A stretch of DNA of 64,000 bases from an uncultured virus (IMG/VR IMGVR_UViG_3300036406_001455) (lineage: Duplodnaviria; Heunggongvirae; Uroviricota; Caudoviricetes): IMG/VR virus record IMGVR_UViG_3300036406_001455; one strand, given 5' to 3'. Positions 6,983-55,273 of the stretch are shown here, piece by piece; position 1 is the first letter of the stretch, and each line of letters opens with the position of its first letter. The notes under the pieces are model-generated. The model did no database searches, was not told where the DNA came from, and saw only the letters and a list, made by a program, of their open reading frames with translations. A program made the translations under genes and the position numbers.

Positions 6983-7527
6983 CGGTGGTGGTCCACGGGT
7001 TTCCACGTTTTTGCCTTCATGCGCTCTTTGATCTCCCCGTAAGACACGGGCCGGTAATCCCAGCAGTCCACCCCGATGTCGAGGGACCGCACGTTCGGGT
7101 CATCGGCGAGGTTGCCGTGAGAGTGCCCAAAGAGCATCCAGGCGCCGTAATGTGCGCGGTCCCACACCCGCATCGCGTAGTGGCAGAGCACGATGCGCTG
7201 GACGCCAAGGGGCGCGTCCGCATCGGGCACCTTGACGGTGTGCATGTCCTTGATCCAGCCGAACGCCTTGCCGGGAACCTCGCGGTCGTGGTTGCCGCGG
7301 ACCAGGTATTTCTGCCCATTGAGCCGTTCGGCGAGGCGCGCGGCCTCCTCCTTGCGGCAGAGCGCGAAGTCACCCACGACGTACACCTCGTCGTCAGGCT
7401 GCACCACGGCGTTCCAGTTGGCCACCAGCGCTTCGTTCATCTCGTGCGCGTCCTTGAAGGGCCGCCCGGCGTATTGGATCACGTTGGCGTGGCCAAAATG
7501 CAGGTCGGATGTGAAGAAGGTGTTCAT
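6979..7527 (-). CDS. Calcineurin-like metallophosphoesterase
   Basis: SDLHFGH, VGD, RGNHD, CHY, FGHSHG and GVD motifs. Confidence 0.92.
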   Translation of the reverse strand: MNTFFTSDLHFGHANVIQYAGRPFKDAHEMNEALVANWNAVVQPDDEVYVVGDFALCRKEEAARLAERLNGQKYLVRGNHDREVPGKAFGWIKDMHTVKVPDADAPLGVQRIVLCHYAMRVWDRAHYGAWMLFGHSHGNLADDPNVRSLDIGVDCWDYRPVSYGEIKERMKAKTWKPVDHHR

Positions 7528-8357
7528 CCGTTCCAATCCTTTGGCGCAAGCTGCTCGATGGCATCCCCCGCTTCCGTGTTGGCCAGGTGCGTGTACTCCT
7601 CGGTGGTCCTCGTGCTGCTGTGGCCCATCAACGTTGCGATCGTCTGCATCTTGACGCCGTTCTCCAGCAGGTGGGTCGCGTAGGTGTGGCGCAGCACGTA
7701 GGGGGTCAACTTCGATACCCCGATTTCGTCTGAGATGCCGGGGTACTGCCGCCCGCGGTTGGTGTACCCGGAGACCGCGTGCTGGATGCACTGCACATTC
7801 ATCGCGCCTTTCTTGCCCGGGAATAGCCACTCGCTGTCCACCCGCTTGAGGTAGGCTCGAAGCACACGCGCGCCCAAGCCCCGAACGTCTACCAGCCGAG
7901 GCTTGGCGCTTTTGCCGTGCACTTCCAGCTTGTACCCGGTAGCTGACTCGCGCACATGCTCCACACGGAGATTGCACATCTCGTCGGGTCGCAGCCCAGT
8001 TTGAGGTAACAGGCACAGCGCGACTTTGATCTTCACATCTTCAATGCGGCTCACCGCCTGGTAGTACGCTGCGAGCTGGGGCCGCGAGAGCGCGAACCGC
8101 ATCGACTTGCTCTTGAGCCCTTCCAACGATGCGAGTTTGTTGCTCGCTTCTTCTTGGGTCAACGTCGTATCCATTTTCATGAGTGCGCGAAGCGCGGCCG
8201 CGCGCGTAGGCAATGCGGTGCCTATGGGGGGTCGTGTCTCGACGAATCGCTTGAAGGACGCCACGAGGGCCGCTTCCGACGACGTGTCGAGTACCGTGAC
8301 GCGGTGCTCATAGGTGCGCGTGCTGTTGTTCGCCAACGCGGTGCGGAGTCGTGGCAT
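7524..8357 (-). CDS. Tyrosine recombinase, XerC/D-like
   Basis: TGLRPDE, VHGKSAK, TPYVLRHTYATHLLENG and LMGHSSTRTTEEYTH: catalytic R, K, R, H and Y present; HxxR is YxxR. Confidence 0.92.
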   Translation of the reverse strand: MPRLRTALANNSTRTYEHRVTVLDTSSEAALVASFKRFVETRPPIGTALPTRAAALRALMKMDTTLTQEEASNKLASLEGLKSKSMRFALSRPQLAAYYQAVSRIEDVKIKVALCLLPQTGLRPDEMCNLRVEHVRESATGYKLEVHGKSAKPRLVDVRGLGARVLRAYLKRVDSEWLFPGKKGAMNVQCIQHAVSGYTNRGRQYPGISDEIGVSKLTPYVLRHTYATHLLENGVKMQTIATLMGHSSTRTTEEYTHLANTEAGDAIEQLAPKDWNG

Positions 8358-8364
8358 GGTTCGC

Positions 8365-8393
8365 AGCGTATTATCAACGTATGCCCTTGTCAA
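8365..8393 (-). promoter_or_regulatory. Recombinase promoter (leaderless type)
   Basis: TTGACA-17 nt-TACGCT, then 7 nt to the ATG at 8357. Confidence 0.7.
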
Positions 8394-23760: not shown

Positions 23761-24834
23761 GTGGCGCCCATGCTCGACCCCCACGATGCCTACGACCCTT
23801 TCGACGAAGAGTCGCTGGCGCGGGACCACGAGGAGGTCGCCGAACGCCCGAGCGACCTTCCGCAGCCGCTCCAACCTCCCGACGCTTTGGAGTTGCGCGC
23901 CGGGGCGGTCATCAACACCCGTCGCCCTCTCCGGGTGCTGCCGCGCGCCGTCACCAGCCTCAACGGCATCCGTGAACGGTTGAAGACCGTGAGGGGCATG
24001 GACTACCTTCGGCTTCAAGCGGTTATCGCCTCCATGGATCGCTGTCTCGGGTCGGACGGCATGTTGTGGGCCAGCATGTGGCACCGCCACGCACCAGGTC
24101 GCATCCAGCTTCGCCACGCCGATGTGCAGGCCACGCCGAAGTCCATGCGGTTCGACATTGTTCCATGGGCGCCGGGACGCGTGTTCGTGTCCGCCGACCT
24201 GAAGGCCGCGCATGTTGCCGTGGCCGCGCAGTGGACTGGCGACGCGCTGCTCCACGAAATCTCGGGCGCCCCCGGTGCCTACGACATGCTTGGCGACACC
24301 TTCCTAACCCACCTACCCCCCGCGCAGCGCCGCGGGGCCGCCAAGATCGCCGTGCTGGCCACGCTCAACGGCGCTCGGCCGGCGGGCATCGTAGACGCCG
24401 TGGGTTGCATCGACGCCGCAGCAGCGTTTCAGCGCTACTTCCTTGCCGAGTGCCCAGGCTTCGCCGCCCTCGTGAAGTGGGCGAAAAAGCAGGCATTCAC
24501 GTCCGTGCCCTACATCGCAATCCCGAACCTGCACCGCAGCCGCTGGCGCTGGGTGGAGCGCACCCCGCGGCCGGGCACGCTCCTTTCTGCCATCTGGACC
24601 GGGGCAGAGGCCGAAGCCCTCGACTACACGCTGCTGGCCCTGCCCCCGGCGTGCGCCTTGGTGTCGCCGATGTACGATGGGGTGCTGGTGGAGTGTGCCG
24701 CCCAGGACGCGGGCGCCGTTCAGGCTGAGCTACAGGCTGCCATGGTGGAAGGCGCGCGTAAGGCCGGGTTTGTGACCACCGTGAAGGTAGGCGTAGGGGA
24801 GACATGGGGCGAGGCTGAGGGGCTGTCGCGATAG
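23761..24834 (+). CDS. Minimal, divergent family A DNA polymerase-like protein (palm and fingers only)
   Basis: PGRIQLRHADVQATP (TGRLSS..PNLQNIP-like), motif A VSADLKAAH, motif B RGAAKIAVLATLNG, motif C PMYDGVLVE, C-terminal VGETWGEA. Confidence 0.8.
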   Translation: MAPMLDPHDAYDPFDEESLARDHEEVAERPSDLPQPLQPPDALELRAGAVINTRRPLRVLPRAVTSLNGIRERLKTVRGMDYLRLQAVIASMDRCLGSDGMLWASMWHRHAPGRIQLRHADVQATPKSMRFDIVPWAPGRVFVSADLKAAHVAVAAQWTGDALLHEISGAPGAYDMLGDTFLTHLPPAQRRGAAKIAVLATLNGARPAGIVDAVGCIDAAAAFQRYFLAECPGFAALVKWAKKQAFTSVPYIAIPNLHRSRWRWVERTPRPGTLLSAIWTGAEAEALDYTLLALPPACALVSPMYDGVLVECAAQDAGAVQAELQAAMVEGARKAGFVTTVKVGVGETWGEAEGLSR

Positions 24835-31912: not shown

Positions 31913-32970
31913 TCAACCTTCGGAAACACGTGCCATGGCCATCAGCGCGTACTCCGGGTTCAGGTCGATGTAGACAGCATCGCGGCCCGCCCGCTTGGCC
32001 GCCAGCGCAGTCGTGCCAGCGCCGCCAAACGGATCAAGCACAACACACGGAACGGCTGAGGAGGCACAGCTACAAGCCGCGACAAAGTCGGATGTGCCGA
32101 TACGCACGGTGGCCAGCACGTTGCCCCCGCGCCCCGACGGATCGCGCTCACGCTGGCCCCCGTCATGCCTCTCGGGGTAGCCGCCTACCGCGGCCCCCGT
32201 GCCCTCCACGGCTTCTCGGCGCTGAATCACGCGGGCCCAAGGCTTGCCGCAACTGCCACAGCAGCCAGCTTCGCTGGTGCTTGCTCGGATGCAGATGTCG
32301 GGTACGTCGAGAGGGAAGGTGGCAAAGTGCGCTCCCTTGAAGCGCCCAGGGGGCAACGTCCACACCGACCTGCGGTTCCGCGTTTCCCCGTTCCCTACCG
32401 CACGCATGGGGCCGTTCGTCTTGCCCGGTACGCGGTTCGAACCCGCCTGGTGCGCGGTGCCTCCCGACAGGCGAGCCTTTGTTGATTCGGTGACGGGTTC
32501 AGCCACTGCGTGCGCGTCGTAGTAGTAACTGGCGCTCTTGCTCAGGAGGAAGATGTATTCGTGCGACTTCGTGCAACGATCACGTACGCTCTCTGGCATA
32601 CACGAGCTTTTGCCCAGATCACATCTTGGCGCAGATACCACCCATCGGCCCTAAGCGCAAACGCCACGGCCCACGGAATGCCAATGATGTCTTTGGCTTT
32701 GATCCCGCAGCCTGCGCCGTTGCCCGGGGCCCACGAATCACCGAGGTTCAGCCACAAAGCGCCGTCGTCCCGCAGCACCCGCCGGGCTTCGCGAAACACC
32801 GCGACAAGTTCGGCCACGTACTCGTCGACCGTCTGCTCCTGCCCCGTCTGGCCATCCACACCGTAGTCGCGGATGCCGTAGTACGGTGGGGAGGTGACCA
32901 CGCAATGCACGCTCTGATCTGGCAACTCAGCCAACTTGACCCGAGCGTCGCCAACGAGTACCCGCAGCAT
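31913..32970 (-). pseudogene. DNA methyltransferase (N4C, beta class, SPPY) split by a -1 frameshift
   Basis: 5' frame TSPPY...WYLRQDVIWAK; 3' frame SSCMPESVRDRCTKSHEYIFLL...HFATFP...VLDPFGGAGTT; one extra A in the A4 run at 32608-32611 restores the frame. Confidence 0.85.
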
Positions 32971-32972
32971 GA

Positions 32973-35900
32973 CTACGCCTCCTTCCAGTTGCTCAAGCAC
33001 TTCGTCCCGTCAACCCGTCGAACGGGGCCGACCTTTGCTTCCGCGGTGATGGCGACCTCCCAGCCCGGGAGCGTGCCGCTGGGGATCGTCATACACTCCT
33101 CCCACAACTGTCGGCGTCGCTCGGTCTGCGCGTCGCACACAACCACTACCTTGCCCCCGCGGTCCTCCTCCCATGCCGCCCCCAGCATTTCGCCGTTGGC
33201 CGCATCGTGGGTCTGCGACACCAGCCCGGTACCCGCACCCTCGAAGTTCTCCGGGAAGGCCGTGCGGAGGTTACATTCGATCAAAGAGAACAGCGGCGCC
33301 TCCTCTGCGAGAATGTCGTAGTTGACCACCGCTTGCAGCTTGCCGTTGTCCAAGCCTCCGCTCCGGCGCCCGAACACTGCCTCCTCGATCCAGCCCCCGT
33401 TCGCCGTGAAGGTGTTCATCACCTTGTTCCACGCGCGCTCCCACTCGGGTTCGTTGCGCATCCAGATGTTGTAGAGCTTGGTGACCTCGCGCACGGTCAT
33501 ATGCGCAAAGGGCATGTCGCCCGTGTCCTTGTTCTCCACCTTGACCACGGAACGCCAGATACCCTCGGCGATGTCCGCATAGGCGCCCTGGTAGCGGATC
33601 ACCTTAGCCATGCTCCGCATCTTGTCGGCGTCGCTGTCCTTCTTCGGCTTGTCCTTCTGGAGCAAGGAAAAGCCGTTAGGCCCCCAGCCGCTGGCATGCT
33701 TGAACTTGGAACCAAAGAAGTCGTACGCGAGCGCGCAATGCGGGTCAACCCCGTTCTTGAAGCCTTCCAGCAGCCGCCCCACGCGCCAACGATTCGCGAT
33801 GATGCGAAGGTGAAACTGATCTACGTCTCCGCCGATCATAATGCGGCCCGGATACCGTGAGTCGCTGATGTCGTAAATCGGCTGTGCAGCGTACTGGTCG
33901 CGGAACCGCACGGGCACGTTCTGGAGGTTGACGCCCGAGCTGTTGAGCCGCGCCACCGATGTGATGATCGAAGACGTGAAGTTGTGCATGCGCCCGTCGT
34001 CCCACACGAGGCCGTATTCGGGGTCCGTGCGCTGCATCCGCAATGGCACGCAGAACGTAGCCTTGGCCTTCCGGGCACGGTTGTAGCGCCGAATCGCGTC
34101 CACGAACGCCTTACGGTCCCCGCCCACGGTGCCGTCCGTCAAGATGCCACGCATCACCTCGTCGTCGACACTTGCCTCCCCGGTCTCCTCGGAGAACTTG
34201 GTGGGAATCAGACCCCACTCCTTGAAGAATATCTGCGCGATCTGTAGCCGGCTCCCGGGATTGAACATTTCGATCTTGCTGACATCGCCCGTCTTTGCGC
34301 TCGCCGTAACCTTGCCGGTCACGCCCAGCGCGTGAGCGTACTTGCGCGCGGCAAACTTGTACTTTGCGGCCTCCACATCCAAGCGTGCTTCGTGCTTCTG
34401 GCGCTTCACCTGGTCGACGTACAAGCCCGCGCGGTGGAAGTGCCTGCACATCTCCTGGCGATACGCATCTACCCCCGAAAGCGTCCACGGATGGTACGTG
34501 GGCCACGACACGGGTTTCAGCGCGGGGGGGAGCGGGCGGAAGTAGCCCTTCTCGGTTGCGATCTTGTAAAGCGGGTCAAGAATCTTGGCATTGACCGCGC
34601 AGTCAATAATGCAGTAATAATGTAGTTGCGGGTCGCTGGATGCGTGAAAAGCAATCTTTACACCATCCTTATCTGCCTTCCAGGCAAACACGTCCGTCAG
34701 GATGGAACCCAAAGGCCCCAAACCCTTGGGCAAGTCTGGAGCGCGCGCCCGAGCCATCGGAAGCGTGTCCATCTCTGGCCACGGCCGAACGCCCAACCAC
34801 GCTTCCGTGAGCTGATCGTCGTAGCCAAATGTGTTGTGGCCCACCTTCCACACGTCGCCGCGCGTAAACCACTCACGCAGTATCTGCTTGACCTCCTCCT
34901 CTTCGGGTTGGTTGTAGAAGTGCCTATTTCGATCTTCTCTTGATTCAATCGGCACCAACAACGTGTCCACATCAACCGTGCGCACGCCTTTTCCGTCGCA
35001 GCACGCGCACGGCAGATGCTGACGATCCGGGCCAGTTGGAACCCACCCGTTGCCCGGCAGGAAGTCCAGCACCCGCAGCCCCGACCCTTGACACTTCTCG
35101 CAGCGCTGCGTCCGTGGGGGCTCGACCAGGCGCGCGAAGCCGATGCAGTCCACGCGCGCCGTCAACGGGTCTTTGCCGCTGGCCTCGTAGTCGTACACCA
35201 CGAAGCGCGCGGGCTGCGCCAGCCACTCGCGCAGACGCGCAGGCGTAGGGTACCACTCGTAGTACGGTTCGAACCATGTGCGCTTGTTCTCGAACCACCG
35301 AAACGCCTTGGCCAAGTCCGCCTGAAACACATCTCGCCATTGCATGGCGCGGAGCACGAAGGCTGGGTGCAGCGTCGGCATGCACTTCCGCACCACCGCA
35401 GGGTCCGAAGTTGGCAGCTCGATCGGCCCCCCACGAATCGCGAGCACCCCCTGCTGCGTCTTGAACACCGCCTTGGCTGCGGAGCCCCCCAGCGTGATGA
35501 TGTTGGAAAACCGCTGCAATCCTTTCTGGAGCCGCGGGAGACAGCACTGCGCCGGTGTGGGCCACTGATGCACGGTTTCCGGTGCGGCGCCTTCAATCTT
35601 GGCCAGCGCTTTCAACCGGTCATTCTCGCGCTTGATCTCGCGCTCCATGCGCTTGTACGCGCCGCCGGACTCGCCAGGGGGTTGACACGATATCGTGCTG
35701 ACGATGGCGACGTGCTCGCGGCGCCGCCCAATAGCGTGCAGCGTCGCGTTCCACTCCTGTCCGGACTTGCCCGCGAACGGAAAGCCCAGCTTGACCTCTT
35801 CGGTGGATGGGTTCTCTGCAACCGCTACTGCAATATCCTCGGCGTGAAACTCGTCGGGTACCGGGGTCCAGGGCACCGTCTGATCCCGAAGAAACCCGTT

Positions 35901-35993
35901 GGGGCCAAGCGGGCAGGCATCACAATGGCAGCCCTCGCGCCGAGGATCAAAGCCGTGAGGCGTCGGCTGGGAGACGTGTGTGGTGCTGAACAT
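32973..35993 (-). CDS. Family A DNA polymerase with N-terminal family-4 uracil-DNA-glycosylase-like domain and 3'-5' exonuclease
   Basis: UDG: CDACPL, AENPS..E...G.PFAGKSG, CQPP, LHPA. Exonuclease: YDYE, GHN...YD, YCIID. Polymerase: RLNSSGVNLQNVP, GDVDQFHLR, RSMAKVIRYQGAY, QTHDA. Confidence 0.93.
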   Translation of the reverse strand: MFSTTHVSQPTPHGFDPRREGCHCDACPLGPNGFLRDQTVPWTPVPDEFHAEDIAVAVAENPSTEEVKLGFPFAGKSGQEWNATLHAIGRRREHVAIVSTISCQPPGESGGAYKRMEREIKRENDRLKALAKIEGAAPETVHQWPTPAQCCLPRLQKGLQRFSNIITLGGSAAKAVFKTQQGVLAIRGGPIELPTSDPAVVRKCMPTLHPAFVLRAMQWRDVFQADLAKAFRWFENKRTWFEPYYEWYPTPARLREWLAQPARFVVYDYEASGKDPLTARVDCIGFARLVEPPRTQRCEKCQGSGLRVLDFLPGNGWVPTGPDRQHLPCACCDGKGVRTVDVDTLLVPIESREDRNRHFYNQPEEEEVKQILREWFTRGDVWKVGHNTFGYDDQLTEAWLGVRPWPEMDTLPMARARAPDLPKGLGPLGSILTDVFAWKADKDGVKIAFHASSDPQLHYYCIIDCAVNAKILDPLYKIATEKGYFRPLPPALKPVSWPTYHPWTLSGVDAYRQEMCRHFHRAGLYVDQVKRQKHEARLDVEAAKYKFAARKYAHALGVTGKVTASAKTGDVSKIEMFNPGSRLQIAQIFFKEWGLIPTKFSEETGEASVDDEVMRGILTDGTVGGDRKAFVDAIRRYNRARKAKATFCVPLRMQRTDPEYGLVWDDGRMHNFTSSIITSVARLNSSGVNLQNVPVRFRDQYAAQPIYDISDSRYPGRIMIGGDVDQFHLRIIANRWRVGRLLEGFKNGVDPHCALAYDFFGSKFKHASGWGPNGFSLLQKDKPKKDSDADKMRSMAKVIRYQGAYADIAEGIWRSVVKVENKDTGDMPFAHMTVREVTKLYNIWMRNEPEWERAWNKVMNTFTANGGWIEEAVFGRRSGGLDNGKLQAVVNYDILAEEAPLFSLIECNLRTAFPENFEGAGTGLVSQTHDAANGEMLGAAWEEDRGGKVVVVCDAQTERRRQLWEECMTIPSGTLPGWEVAITAEAKVGPVRRVDGTKCLSNWKEA

Positions 35994-37039
35994 CAGAACG
36001 GCGACTCCGTGTACAACGCTTCACGCACCACCATCAAAATGCGACCCAACTCGTTGCGCTTTTCCGCAGGGGCGCACTGCGCACACGCGCACGCTCCCCA
36101 GAAGTTGTCGTGCACCATGTTTCCGTAAAGCAGCTCGGCGGTGCCCGTGTATTTCAACTTGTGGCCTATCTCTGGCGTACGGTGGAACTTGTCGTACACG
36201 AGCGCTTGCATGAATGGTACTTGCACCTGTGGCCAGTCGAGGCGCTCCGGAAGGCTCTCGCCCAGCCGTGTGGCGTCCTCGGGCGCGCCTACCAAGAAGG
36301 CGCCCCAGGTAGATTGCGGGCCTTTCATCGCTTGGTACGCATGCTCCACGGATGGGAACACCGTGTCGTAGATGCCGACCGGCGTCGGGAACGCGTTGCT
36401 CAGGAAGCGGTGATGCCCGCCGAAAAACCGAATAGCGTCCGGCACGAGCGTGAGGGCAGGAGCTTGCACAGCCGGCGCGGCGCCGGGAGGCAGCGCCACC
36501 GGCGCCGTAGCCTGGGTCTTTGGGCGGGCGCCCATAAGAATCTCGACGGCTACAGCAGCTGCCGTCTGCGCGTCGGAAAGCGCACGATGCGCAGGCAGGA
36601 AAGGCGGAATGCCGCAGCGTTCCGCAGCGTCGCGTAGCTTGAGGCTTTTGACATCGAAGTGCTTCCGCGCGGCCTGCATGATGCACGTGTCCCACGGCGG
36701 TAGTTGGAAGCCGGCGCGTGCACAGTGTGTCCGGTCGAATGGCGCGTTGTACGCCGTCGTCTTGATGCCTGGCAGGTTTAGCCGGCGCAACCACGCATGA
36801 AGCGCTTCGGCAACTTCAGCGGTGCTCGGTGCGGCTTCAATCACGTCTCGCGTGATGTGGTTGATGGCCAGCCCGGCGTCGGCGCGGTGATCCAACAAGT
36901 CCGGGCGCACCATGGACGTGAAAGCCCCCACCGCACGGCCCTCGCTGTTTACGGCCACCGCAGCAATCTCCACGATGCGCGCCCAATCTTCGAGCAGCCC
37001 CGTGGTTTCGGTGTCGACAATCAACAGCGGCAGGCGCAA
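35993..37039 (-). CDS. DEDDh (DnaQ-like) exonuclease fused to a NADAR domain
   Basis: VDTETTG, YNAPFD, HRALSDA; then FLSNAF, SVEHAYQAMK, DNFWG and NELGRILM..R; TTG start after AAGGA. Confidence 0.9.
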   Translation of the reverse strand: MRLPLLIVDTETTGLLEDWARIVEIAAVAVNSEGRAVGAFTSMVRPDLLDHRADAGLAINHITRDVIEAAPSTAEVAEALHAWLRRLNLPGIKTTAYNAPFDRTHCARAGFQLPPWDTCIMQAARKHFDVKSLKLRDAAERCGIPPFLPAHRALSDAQTAAAVAVEILMGARPKTQATAPVALPPGAAPAVQAPALTLVPDAIRFFGGHHRFLSNAFPTPVGIYDTVFPSVEHAYQAMKGPQSTWGAFLVGAPEDATRLGESLPERLDWPQVQVPFMQALVYDKFHRTPEIGHKLKYTGTAELLYGNMVHDNFWGACACAQCAPAEKRNELGRILMVVREALYTESPF

Positions 37040-37158
37040 GGAGTATCCTTTGTAAATGATCCACAGAACCCAACCGCCACCTGTCGCCAAGCGAGGGGAG
37101 CAGCCATGCGGCCACTCCCCCCGTGGGCGTCAAGAGGTGCGACCCTCCGAAGACCTCC

Positions 37159-37937: not shown

Positions 37938-38945
37938 TCAAGACGTAGCGTCACCCGGCGGGGGCGGTGGCGCCGATGCCGGGGCGTTGTTTGCCGCCGC
38001 TTGCATGGCGCGGCCGAGGAAGCCCCCGCTGCGCTGTAGCCGAAGGTTCTCGCGGGCGATGCCGTCCTGCACGGCCCACAGTACGTGGCGCTCTCCGGGG
38101 GAGTCCACGTCGGCGTAGCCATTCTTGCGGAAGTGCTCGAACACTTCGGTGGCTGCAGCGAGTGGCGTCTTCCCCCCGCGAACCATGTCCGCGGTGTGCG
38201 TGGCCCACTGTTCCTGCCACTCCAGCCCGGGGTAGCGGGGCAGCACGAAACGCCCCTGCGACGCCCGCAGGATCTCGCGCAGATTGGCCGGCGTTGCAGC
38301 CGAGCAGACGTTGAAGCGGTCGCCGGTGATCCAGTTGGTGTCCGTTGGGTCCACGAAGAGCGACCCCTTCCAGAACGGGTCGAGGAGCGACTTGTCGGAC
38401 CCCATGCGTGCCACAAGGTCGGCCCACCCCGGGACGGCCTGCACCTGGTTGGCAGATGGCACTTCCGGGGCGCCGCGCCGCTGCTTCTCGCCGTCTGGCT
38501 TCGTCTCGTGGGCCGAAAGTCCCGCAGGGATGCCCAGCTCGCGCAGCAGGTTGGCTACCGTGTCCAGGTGGCGGTCCAGTTGCCCGTACTTGTAGAACGC
38601 GTCGCGGCCGCGCTTGACCGAGACGGGGGCTTCCGCGTCCCAACGGAGCATGGAGATGTTGCACAGGTGTGAGAAATCGTCCACGTAGATGGAGCCGTAG
38701 GGCGCCACGTGTGCAGGGTTCGCGCGCAGGTACTGAAGGAACTCCACCAGCTTGGTCAGGTCGGTTACGTTCTCTTGCACCCAGGCGGGCTTTACCCCAC
38801 AGGTGTTCAGCGCCACCAAGTCAATGGCGGAACGGACACCGATGCAAATGGCGTTGGGAAAAGCGCGAAGGAAGAGGCTAGTCTTGCCAACCTTCGGGTT
38901 TGCGTACACAAGTAGCAACAACCCGGGTAGGGTGATATCGGCCAT
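37938..38945 (-). CDS. Sak4-like (AAA_24) single-strand annealing ATPase
   Basis: LVYANPKVGKTS, IYVDDFS, SAHE and WADLVARM. Confidence 0.78.
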   Translation of the reverse strand: MADITLPGLLLLVYANPKVGKTSLFLRAFPNAICIGVRSAIDLVALNTCGVKPAWVQENVTDLTKLVEFLQYLRANPAHVAPYGSIYVDDFSHLCNISMLRWDAEAPVSVKRGRDAFYKYGQLDRHLDTVANLLRELGIPAGLSAHETKPDGEKQRRGAPEVPSANQVQAVPGWADLVARMGSDKSLLDPFWKGSLFVDPTDTNWITGDRFNVCSAATPANLREILRASQGRFVLPRYPGLEWQEQWATHTADMVRGGKTPLAAATEVFEHFRKNGYADVDSPGERHVLWAVQDGIARENLRLQRSGGFLGRAMQAAANNAPASAPPPPPGDATS

Positions 38946-54305: not shown

Positions 54306-54604
54306 ACGCGCCTCCTCAAAGTTTCGAGCTTGATACGGTAAGCGATGCTTGCCTCTTGGATGCCTGCGGCATGCGCACGAAAGCCGGAGGCCGCCTTCTC
54401 CAGCGCTTTGCCCTGCGCGTAGAGCGCTTCAACCTCCTCAACGGTCTGCGCCCGGTCCAGGGCGCGTAGGAACGCTTCTTGGTCGCGCCAGAACTGCGAC
54501 GACTCCGTGGCCGCCAACACGAGTAGCGCGAATGCGTGGGCCGCGACCCAGAACAGGACGAATGGCAGCACTACATCAGCCACCCTTCGGCTCCTTGACG
54601 CCAT
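54302..54604 (-). CDS. Membrane-anchored hypothetical protein
   Basis: One hydrophobic helix followed by a coiled segment. Confidence 0.55.
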   Translation of the reverse strand: MASRSRRVADVVLPFVLFWVAAHAFALLVLAATESSQFWRDQEAFLRALDRAQTVEEVEALYAQGKALEKAASGFRAHAAGIQEASIAYRIKLETLRRRV

Positions 54605-54832
54605 ACGCGCGGTCGTCGCCAAAGCCGAGAAGCAGAAGCTGCGGCAGCAGCAGCCTTCGAATCCGCTGGCCTTCATCCGTGCGGATCGGAATGTTCTGGA
54701 GGTTGGGTGCGGGTGCCGTCATTCGGCCTGTGATCGGCTTCATGCTCTGGGACTTAGCCTGTCCTTGGCGGATTGGCAAGGCCCTTGCGCGATACCCCGT
54801 GACGTAGTAAGATCGCGTAACAAAGGGCCACC

Positions 54833-55273
54833 ATGTCACGCATCAATCGCCGGCTTGTACTCGCGGAACACTTCGGCTGCGACTACGCCGACCTGTCCGA
54901 CGCCCGCTACCAGAGCAGCCGCTTCGTCAAGGTGCCCGTGTATGTGGGCGGCAACGACTACTGGTGCGTCACCCGCGGCGGCGAACTGCCACCGACAGCC
55001 CCCGATGCCGGCGCAAACGCCGGGAGTCCCATGGGCTGGGCGTGGGAAGCACTGCCCGCGGATGTCTGGCCGCTGCCGAGGTACAGCCAGCAACTCACCA
55101 TCTGGCGGGCGCGAGGTTCTTCGAGCCGTCGCTCGGGTCAGCACGCCCCGATGGTGTTGGCCAGGGCGGTGCGTCGCACCTCGATGTCGCGCAGCCGCGT
55201 AGCGCGGGCGGGTGACTCGGGCTCCAGCATGCAGCGGTCAAACGCGCGGTCGCACATGCGAATGGCGCGATGA
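54833..55273 (+). CDS. Hypothetical protein
   Basis: High-GC3 5' portion; the 3' end overlaps a minus-strand ORF. Confidence 0.55.
   Translation: MSRINRRLVLAEHFGCDYADLSDARYQSSRFVKVPVYVGGNDYWCVTRGGELPPTAPDAGANAGSPMGWAWEALPADVWPLPRYSQQLTIWRARGSSSRRSGQHAPMVLARAVRRTSMSRSRVARAGDSGSSMQRSNARSHMRMAR

Follow-up and report, generated by a model that had tools for sequence, protein, structure and literature searches.

A putative alternative steric gate: histidine as one part of a linked residue triad in family A DNA polymerases of an uncultured phage

Introduction

The gate glutamate of family A DNA polymerases (PolAs), which in published canonical enzymes packs under C2' of the incoming sugar, is regarded as invariant. 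The 64,000-nucleotide stretch of DNA analysed here (the window), taken from IMG/VR record IMGVR_UViG_3300036406_001455 of an uncultured Caudoviricetes virus, encodes two PolA homologues for which a preliminary description reported histidine at this site, five residues after motif A's catalytic aspartate. It proposed altered sugar or base selectivity, possibly for a modified nucleotide, or else an alternative gate. Here we ask which of these readings best fits the two proteins and their relatives.

Both polymerases of the window carry histidine at the gate position

A six-frame search and alignments located DVDQFHLR in a long replicase and DLKAAHVA in a shorter protein, the mini-PolA, and thus bore out the reported His at Asp+5 in both. 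Of the location first given for the pair, 33570 to 33840, the replicase part stands; the mini-PolA motif lies about 9 kb outside. Klenow numbers E710 and Q849 follow PMC10520511, and A852 was counted from the KlenTaq alignment. The replicase has the following features:

32973..35993, minus strand: replicase gene, 1006 aa, with family-4-like UDG, 3'-5' exonuclease and family A polymerase domains
35337..35828, minus strand: UDG domain, aa 56-219; Cys ligands, E60, E66 and H209 present, Ser99 differs
35184..35192, minus strand: exonuclease I motif D268-x-E270; D392 and D464 are kept too
33948..33950, minus strand: R682, the TGR-motif Arg (Klenow R668), kept in the alignment
33804..33827, minus strand: motif A DVDQFHLR, from the six-frame search, with catalytic D723 at 33825-33827
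33810..33812, minus strand: H728, occupying the gate Glu site (Klenow E710, Taq E615); first member of the triad
33576..33617, minus strand: motif B, with KVIRYQGAYA at 33576-33605; R793, K797, Y801 (position 762) and Y805 (position 766) kept
33309..33311, minus strand: L895, where canonical enzymes have the motif-6 Gln (Klenow Q849, Taq Q754); second member of the triad
33300..33302, minus strand: E898, a new acid three residues past 849 (Klenow A852, Taq A757); third member of the triad
33204..33209, minus strand: motif C H929-D930, catalytic Asp kept

Pfam recognised DNA_pol_A (E 3.6e-18) and UDG (E 3.3e-11) in the replicase ORF. Its AF2 model (pLDDT 94.4, pTM 0.92) had Klenow as the top Foldseek match (E 3e-25), indicating a Klenow-type fold, and a phmmer alignment placed H728 directly on the Klenow gate Glu. 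The family A hallmarks D723, D930, R682, R793, K797 and Y805 are all present; the gate Glu and the motif-6 Gln are replaced by H728 and L895, and by these residues the protein is a family A variant. Exonuclease E270 occurs in 82/82 His rows and 26/26 Glu rows. The UDG activity of the window copy is uncertain because Ser99 stands where most relatives carry Asn (50/82 His rows, 24/26 Glu rows).

The mini-PolA gene is oriented opposite to its neighbours, and a search for a sigma-70 promoter or terminator around it gave no match. Its features are:

23761..24834, plus strand: mini-PolA gene, 357 aa; a lone polymerase domain whose thumb is short, exonuclease absent
24196..24219, plus strand: motif A DLKAAHVA, with D146 and H151; His codon at 24211-24213
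24355..24369, plus strand: motif B, with Leu199 at position 762 and Asn203 replacing Tyr766
24598..24609, plus strand: motif 6, where T280 replaces Q849 and E283 is the acid gained at 852
24676..24678, plus strand: catalytic D306 of motif C

The Pfam score was weak (E 0.045), and a PHROG DNA polymerase family matched at E 1.2e-10. The AF2 model (pLDDT 84.6, pTM 0.81) matched Klenow and apPOL at E ~1e-13 (Klenow 8e-14, Foldseek), the codon score was gene-like, and ESM Atlas also supported PolA identity. The fold and both catalytic aspartates (D146, D306) are in place, and the mini-PolA is a real PolA. It lacks the gate Glu, the motif-6 Asn/Gln and the motif-B Tyr (H151, S276/T280 and N203, respectively), and its activity is uncertain because Tyr766 has also been lost. 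The motif 6 register was gapless both in hhalign and against KlenTaq.

The window was found in 20 lake metagenome runs, 15 of them unflagged as a possible source; no RNA run was listed among those carrying it. The replicase His codon is spanned by contigs from lake runs X6, X15 and X17, identical in their letters there, and the mini-PolA His codon by contigs from X6 and X20, likewise without a differing letter. Given these contigs of other lake runs, the His codons are not a sequencing error. His was also present in 35/35 close replicase homologues; it is a clade trait of the replicase and not chance.

Two neighbours of the replicase were recorded in passing. A DEDDh exonuclease fused to a NADAR domain lies directly upstream (35993-37090, minus strand), and an N6/N4 DNA methyltransferase is split across two overlapping frames (31913-33000, minus strand); near 32607 within it, the X15 contig has one inserted base relative to the window.

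The histidine belongs to a linked triad

The preliminary description had called for a survey of PolA alignments for His at this position. We aligned 180 rows to the polymerase-domain profile (35 close matches, the listed best 150 of 1565 representatives, and the query, with overlaps merged) and found 121 His rows, two of them the window's own, 57 Glu/Asp rows and two fragments. Every His row with both partner columns aligned (120/120) carried Leu, Ile or Phe at column 895 (L 114, I 5, F 1) and Glu at column 898. Gln occupied column 895 in 56/56 aligned Glu/Asp rows, and an acid was found at column 898 in 0/54. When all columns were ranked, only 728, 895 and 898 separated the His and Glu/Asp sets with zero overlap.

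Loci collected from IMG/VR and one MAG agreed: Leu or Ile together with Glu was found in 100/100 His rows with both partners aligned, and Gln together with a nonacidic residue in 88/88 Glu rows (10 of which repeat a contig). In this set only the partner columns count as a test, because the fetch patterns fix the gate residue.

As a blind test, we predicted that any PolA with a gate His would lack the Gln and carry the acid. The His version of the canonical motif A pattern had one match in IMG/VR, compared with at least 119 for the Glu version. This match, L241, is an unrelated PolA of 577 aa that joins an exonuclease to a polymerase, lacks a UDG and has a canonical motif B; its residues are equivalent to Taq E615H/Q754I/A757E, with both partners as predicted. 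A second unrelated His PolA, L197, was found incidentally and has His/Leu/Asp, also with a canonical motif B. His in the T7-type motif A pattern gave one match without a PolA-like ORF, and His in the SPO2-type pattern gave none; such exact patterns sample a small part of PolA space.

A homologue search with the mini-PolA returned His in 8/9 matches; the ninth was a canonical Pol I fragment (24% identity) with Glu at the gate. The triad logic is kept in 8/9 His rows of the mini-PolA family, and the ninth row is unaligned at the partner sites. By these alignments the gate His is one part of a linked triad, namely E710 to His, Q849 to Leu, Ile or Phe (Thr or Ser in the mini-PolA) and an acid at A852. 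Separately, in one His-type phage record (G005) a further PolA (L208, 1-1158) has the canonical Glu and Gln.

Motif B is atypical across the replicase family

The preliminary description had also remarked on the atypical motif B of the replicase. This is correct, yet the equivalents of R754, K758 and Y766 are kept and Tyr stands at 762; the other residues between them are family specific. Position 801 (762) is Tyr in 110/121 His rows and position 805 (766) is Tyr in 120/121, while position 800 shows an enrichment, though no requirement, for Arg in the main His clade (95/121). Tyr at 762 is the variant known from Bst, in which the Phe-to-Tyr change at this position nearly abolishes rCTP use according to a review (PMC10520511). 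A tie between motif B and the His was considered and rejected: Glu relatives share the odd motif, and the two unrelated His PolAs, L241 and L197, are canonical there. Atypical motif B is a family trait common to Glu relatives.

The triad appears to have arisen several times

Trees were built with the three triad columns removed. Three changes within the family were needed in a FastTree tree of 173 rows and again in an IQ-TREE tree of 50 rows, picked after the FastTree result was known, where all three were forced by well-supported branches. A single His clade was rejected (p-AU 0.005, LG+G4 without a mixture model). In a 49-row tree rooted on host Pol I, Glu was basal and five changes were needed, four of them forced. 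Across PolAs, the trees point to four to five changes, a count in which the placement of the mini-PolA, L241 and L197 is unsure because long branches meet.

The mini-PolA matched the Glu-type profile at 97.4% and the His-type profile at 96.5% (hhalign). It appears to be no closer to His replicases than to Glu replicases, and it probably represents a separate origin of the same solution. Five nested His proteins have Glu-type flanks at 729-745 (-5.6 to -19.8) and at 811-860, and with such flanks beside the changed sites, point changes are favoured over segment transfer. A neutral three-site swap without intermediates would be hard even once, yet several changes are found, which suggests selection for a new property. 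Repeated origin also keeps changed sugar or base selectivity, as first proposed, plausible.

A rebuilt gate is the most probable reading

In DNA polymerase theta, the motif-B Tyr, the motif-6 Gln and the TGR Arg each form a bond with the carboxylate of the gate (PMC6158600), and in KlenTaq the incoming dNTP has its minor groove read by a water that E615, N750 and Q754 hold (PMC6125688). From these contacts, positions 710 and 849 touch. Position 852 lies one helical turn beyond 849 on the same predicted helix; in the AF2 model of the replicase, L895 and E898 share helix 886-912.

We favour the reading, with a probability of roughly 0.6, that the pocket floor has been rebuilt as a unit into a compensated gate that still selects dNTPs, the phage making ordinary DNA. 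Among the options first offered, an alternative gate fits best, since the His is invariably accompanied by loss of the motif-6 Gln and by an acid gained one helical turn away. In the sequences, His takes the gate position, the motif-6 Gln gives way to a residue unable to form the bond to the gate (Leu, Ile or Phe; Thr or Ser in the mini-PolA), and a carboxylate stands one turn on along that helix. The acid would have shifted from motif A to the motif-6 helix, where, judging from helix register, it could anchor the His; the new Glu might hold the imidazole, through a predicted H728-E898 contact, and replace the lost negative charge. The imidazole ring would then block the 2'-OH. With its intact exonuclease and Tyr at 762, the replicase would serve as the phage's proofreading replicase, and the mini-PolA as an accessory polymerase, probably in gap filling or repair. 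His-type enzymes probably still copy ordinary DNA. Because the Glu/Asn/Gln trio holds the minor-groove water, base reading must differ somewhat in the His type.

Precedent for His at a gate seems to cut both ways. H760 of Escherichia coli Pol III alpha, a family C enzyme, has been modelled as a working steric gate (PMC8485763); its fold is unrelated, and it serves as a precedent in chemistry only. In PrimPol, a gate His opens the site to NTPs (PMC6362072).

A natural alternative in a large phage group, reached several times with the same two partners, would amount to a second stable solution of the pocket. If selectivity is normal, it shows sugar discrimination implemented anew; if altered, it points to a new phage DNA chemistry and offers an engineering handle. 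The triad also defines a three-site swap for Taq or Klenow, in Taq numbering E615H, Q754L or Q754I, and A757E.

Alternative readings of selectivity

The broadest alternative, which we hold to be unlikely, takes the triad as a recurrent adaptive switch with at least four to five origins that alters the accepted substrates, be they ribonucleotides, damaged templates or a nucleotide modified at the 2' position or in the minor groove. Were it true, the triad would be a three-residue key for retuning Taq- and Klenow-type enzymes and a marker of unrecognised phage DNA chemistry.

One specific form of altered selectivity is a relaxed sugar gate, in which the triad admits rNMPs, helps replication at low dNTP levels and was selected repeatedly for doing so. 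The repeated origin of the triad is in keeping with this, as are PrimPol Y100H, which takes NTPs and resists dNTP depletion (PMC6362072), and family A enzymes that open once the gate Glu is removed (PMC10520511 and PMC6158600). In addition, the scans of window ORFs recognised no catalytic subunit of a ribonucleotide reductase, and an RNase H is encoded close to the L197 PolA. The mutations that open the gate are, however, to Ala or Gly, and His is a bulky residue; in Bst, Tyr762 makes the exclusion of rNTPs tighter (PMC10520511), the exonuclease is fully conserved, and genomes of 53-134 kb are maintained and assemble in ordinary metagenomes. On balance we consider a relaxed gate quite improbable.

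A further reading, also quite improbable in our judgement, pairs normal sugar choice with a changed reading of the minor groove: the triad would alter fidelity, the extension of mismatches or the bypass of lesions and abasic sites, possibly in concert with the fused UDG. The water held by E615, N750 and Q754 (PMC6125688) would give such a change a basis. Mismatch spectra are altered by Q849A and E710A (PMC10520511), and UDG-fused PolAs bypass the abasic sites that they make (PMC13697223). Against this reading, the triad also occurs in PolAs without one (L241, L197 and the mini-PolA), and Glu-type sisters retain the same UDG.

Adaptation to a modified nucleotide had been raised in the preliminary description and found no genomic support; the nucleotide would be altered at its minor-groove edge or bear a 2'-substituent and be made by an unrecognised pathway. 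Among the window ORFs scanned (34 in Pfam, 105 in PHROGs and 13 again in Pfam), we recognised ThyX, a dNMP kinase, a MazG-like protein, an HD hydrolase, two methyltransferases and an integrase (7524-8393), and no PurZ. The kinase, the MazG-like protein, the hydrolase and the many unannotated ORFs would leave room for a modification pathway. PurZ, TGT/DpdA and ThyA-type (PF00303) genes, however, were found in 0/21 related records, 8 of them Glu and 13 His, each of the latter no less than 94% complete, with controls detected. The window avoids palindromic restriction sites (AAGCTT 0/12, CTCGAG 0/23, TGATCA 0/16 and GACGTC 0/15, among others) involving all four bases, and His and Glu relatives do likewise. 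Such avoidance is expected of cuttable DNA, though it could be inherited, and together with the presence of ThyX it leaves modified DNA unsupported.

The dATP/dGTP diphosphohydrolase PF18909, used by Z-phages, is present in both unrelated His-PolA genomes (G424, 38436-38732; G425, 116963-117211) and in 0/11 main-clade His and 0/8 Glu records, but it also occurs in phages with canonical genomes (PMC12884076). G424 has TAGT and glycosyltransferase matches as well, and T is modified in other UDG-PolA phages (PMC13697223). Across the neighbourhoods of 180 loci (92 cluster representatives scanned), no gene family tracked the His beyond clade ancestry. Among whole records, no cluster was present in all six His records yet absent from all four Glu records. 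A shared modification module was sought and not found, the matches in the neighbour and whole-record scans being sporadic (QueC and Mom in G002, AdoMetDC in G008, Dam in G005); the whole-record scans covered 295/476 cluster representatives, nearly all from the six His records plus 34 from the four Glu records. We regard adaptation to a modified nucleotide as very doubtful.

A single origin spread by recombination of the motif A-to-motif 6 segment, mini-PolA included, is barely credible: phage genes do recombine and both His proteins sit within one genome, but the five nested His proteins are Glu-type right beside the His and at 811-860, the mini-PolA fits the His-type profile no better than the Glu-type, and around the triad L241 and L197 have canonical motifs, with Asp as the acid in L197.

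Comparison with known polymerases

Both window PolAs resemble Klenow, KlenTaq and Bst in fold, in the motif A and C aspartates and in the TGR Arg and motif-B Arg and Lys; the replicase alone also keeps N845, Y766 and the exonuclease acids. They differ in E710 to His, Q849 to Leu (Thr in the mini-PolA) and A852 to Glu, the replicase further in its UDG fusion and the mini-PolA in its lack of an exonuclease and in Leu762 and Asn766.

A tblastn search of 50,697 phage records gave 52 matches, and the 30 listed were all at about 30% identity or less, so that among those listed there is no isolate to test. N4-like UDG-PolAs (cluster 17, PMC10201439), which share the order of N-terminal family 4 UDG, exonuclease and polymerase, were among the best cultured matches, with 22-30% of residues identical across roughly half the polymerase domain. 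The replicase differs in having Tyr801 at B3 and not Phe. Of the UDG catalytic residues, whose loss is an N4-like trait (PMC10201439), most are kept across the replicase family, and the window copy has Ser for the usual Asn. One N4-like example (L084) has Glu at the gate and falls outside the supported clade.

SPO1- and SP15-like UDG-PolAs (PMC13697223) share the UDG fusion, with catalytic residues conserved in most members. None was among the 30 listed of the 52 cultured matches, and that paper describes the usual gate for them. In contrast to those phages, no hmU pathway was seen, with PF00303 in 0/21 records and ThyX in the window, which is a partial genome. DpoZ of Z-genome phages is likewise a phage PolA with altered conserved positions; it differs in that PurZ was found in 0/21 records and that the replicase has Tyr805 at B4 and not Phe. 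By the features compared, the group of uncultured UDG-PolAs to which the replicase belongs is neither N4-like nor SP15-like, nor is it DpoZ.

The mini-PolA resembles CCPol of SCCmec (PMC7581432) as a truncated PolA without a full exonuclease on mobile DNA. CCPol keeps E710 and F762, where the mini-PolA has His and Leu, and by these residues the mini-PolA is not CCPol. We found no published His gate in family A in a search that lay mostly outside the subscription journals; the sequence logos and supplements of PMC10201439 might show the variant.

Mini-PolA relatives and other features of the window

Pattern searches for mini-PolA loci gave 71 matches in viral contigs, 0 of them confirmed, and three loci in metagenome contigs. 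Two longer relatives (L082 and L083, 481-646 aa) have an N-terminal extension and lie on contigs without recognisable phage genes, near what we take, judging by eye, to be a nuclease-like and a PIN-like ORF. Nineteen loci from 401 genomes of the G013 phylum, found with alignment A4, were set aside: 16 were canonical E/Q/A and three had no pattern match. The long, Pol I-sized frames returned by this alignment are explained by the canonical Pol I row that it contains.

No virion or packaging genes were recognised in the window with Pfam and PHROGs, most ORFs matching no family. For want of virion genes we read the window as a partial genome, the early or replication part of a larger, probably temperate phage. 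A relative sits on an 80,441-base contig, and G424 carries, besides TAGT, GT1/GT2 and amidoligase matches. His-type replicases (L198 and L199) also occur on two contigs of a Myxococcaceae MAG, which may provide a lead to the host or may reflect a binning effect.

Finally, a third PolA-like piece lies at 54654-54731 (minus strand), in a short ORF (54576-54839) of 48-87 aa. About 25-33 residues match the TGR-to-NLQNIP stretch of host Pol I, with 68% identity to one host Pol I and E 4e-6 against KlenTaq, and with no other polymerase part nearby; the piece may be a relic or a peptide that mimics Pol I.
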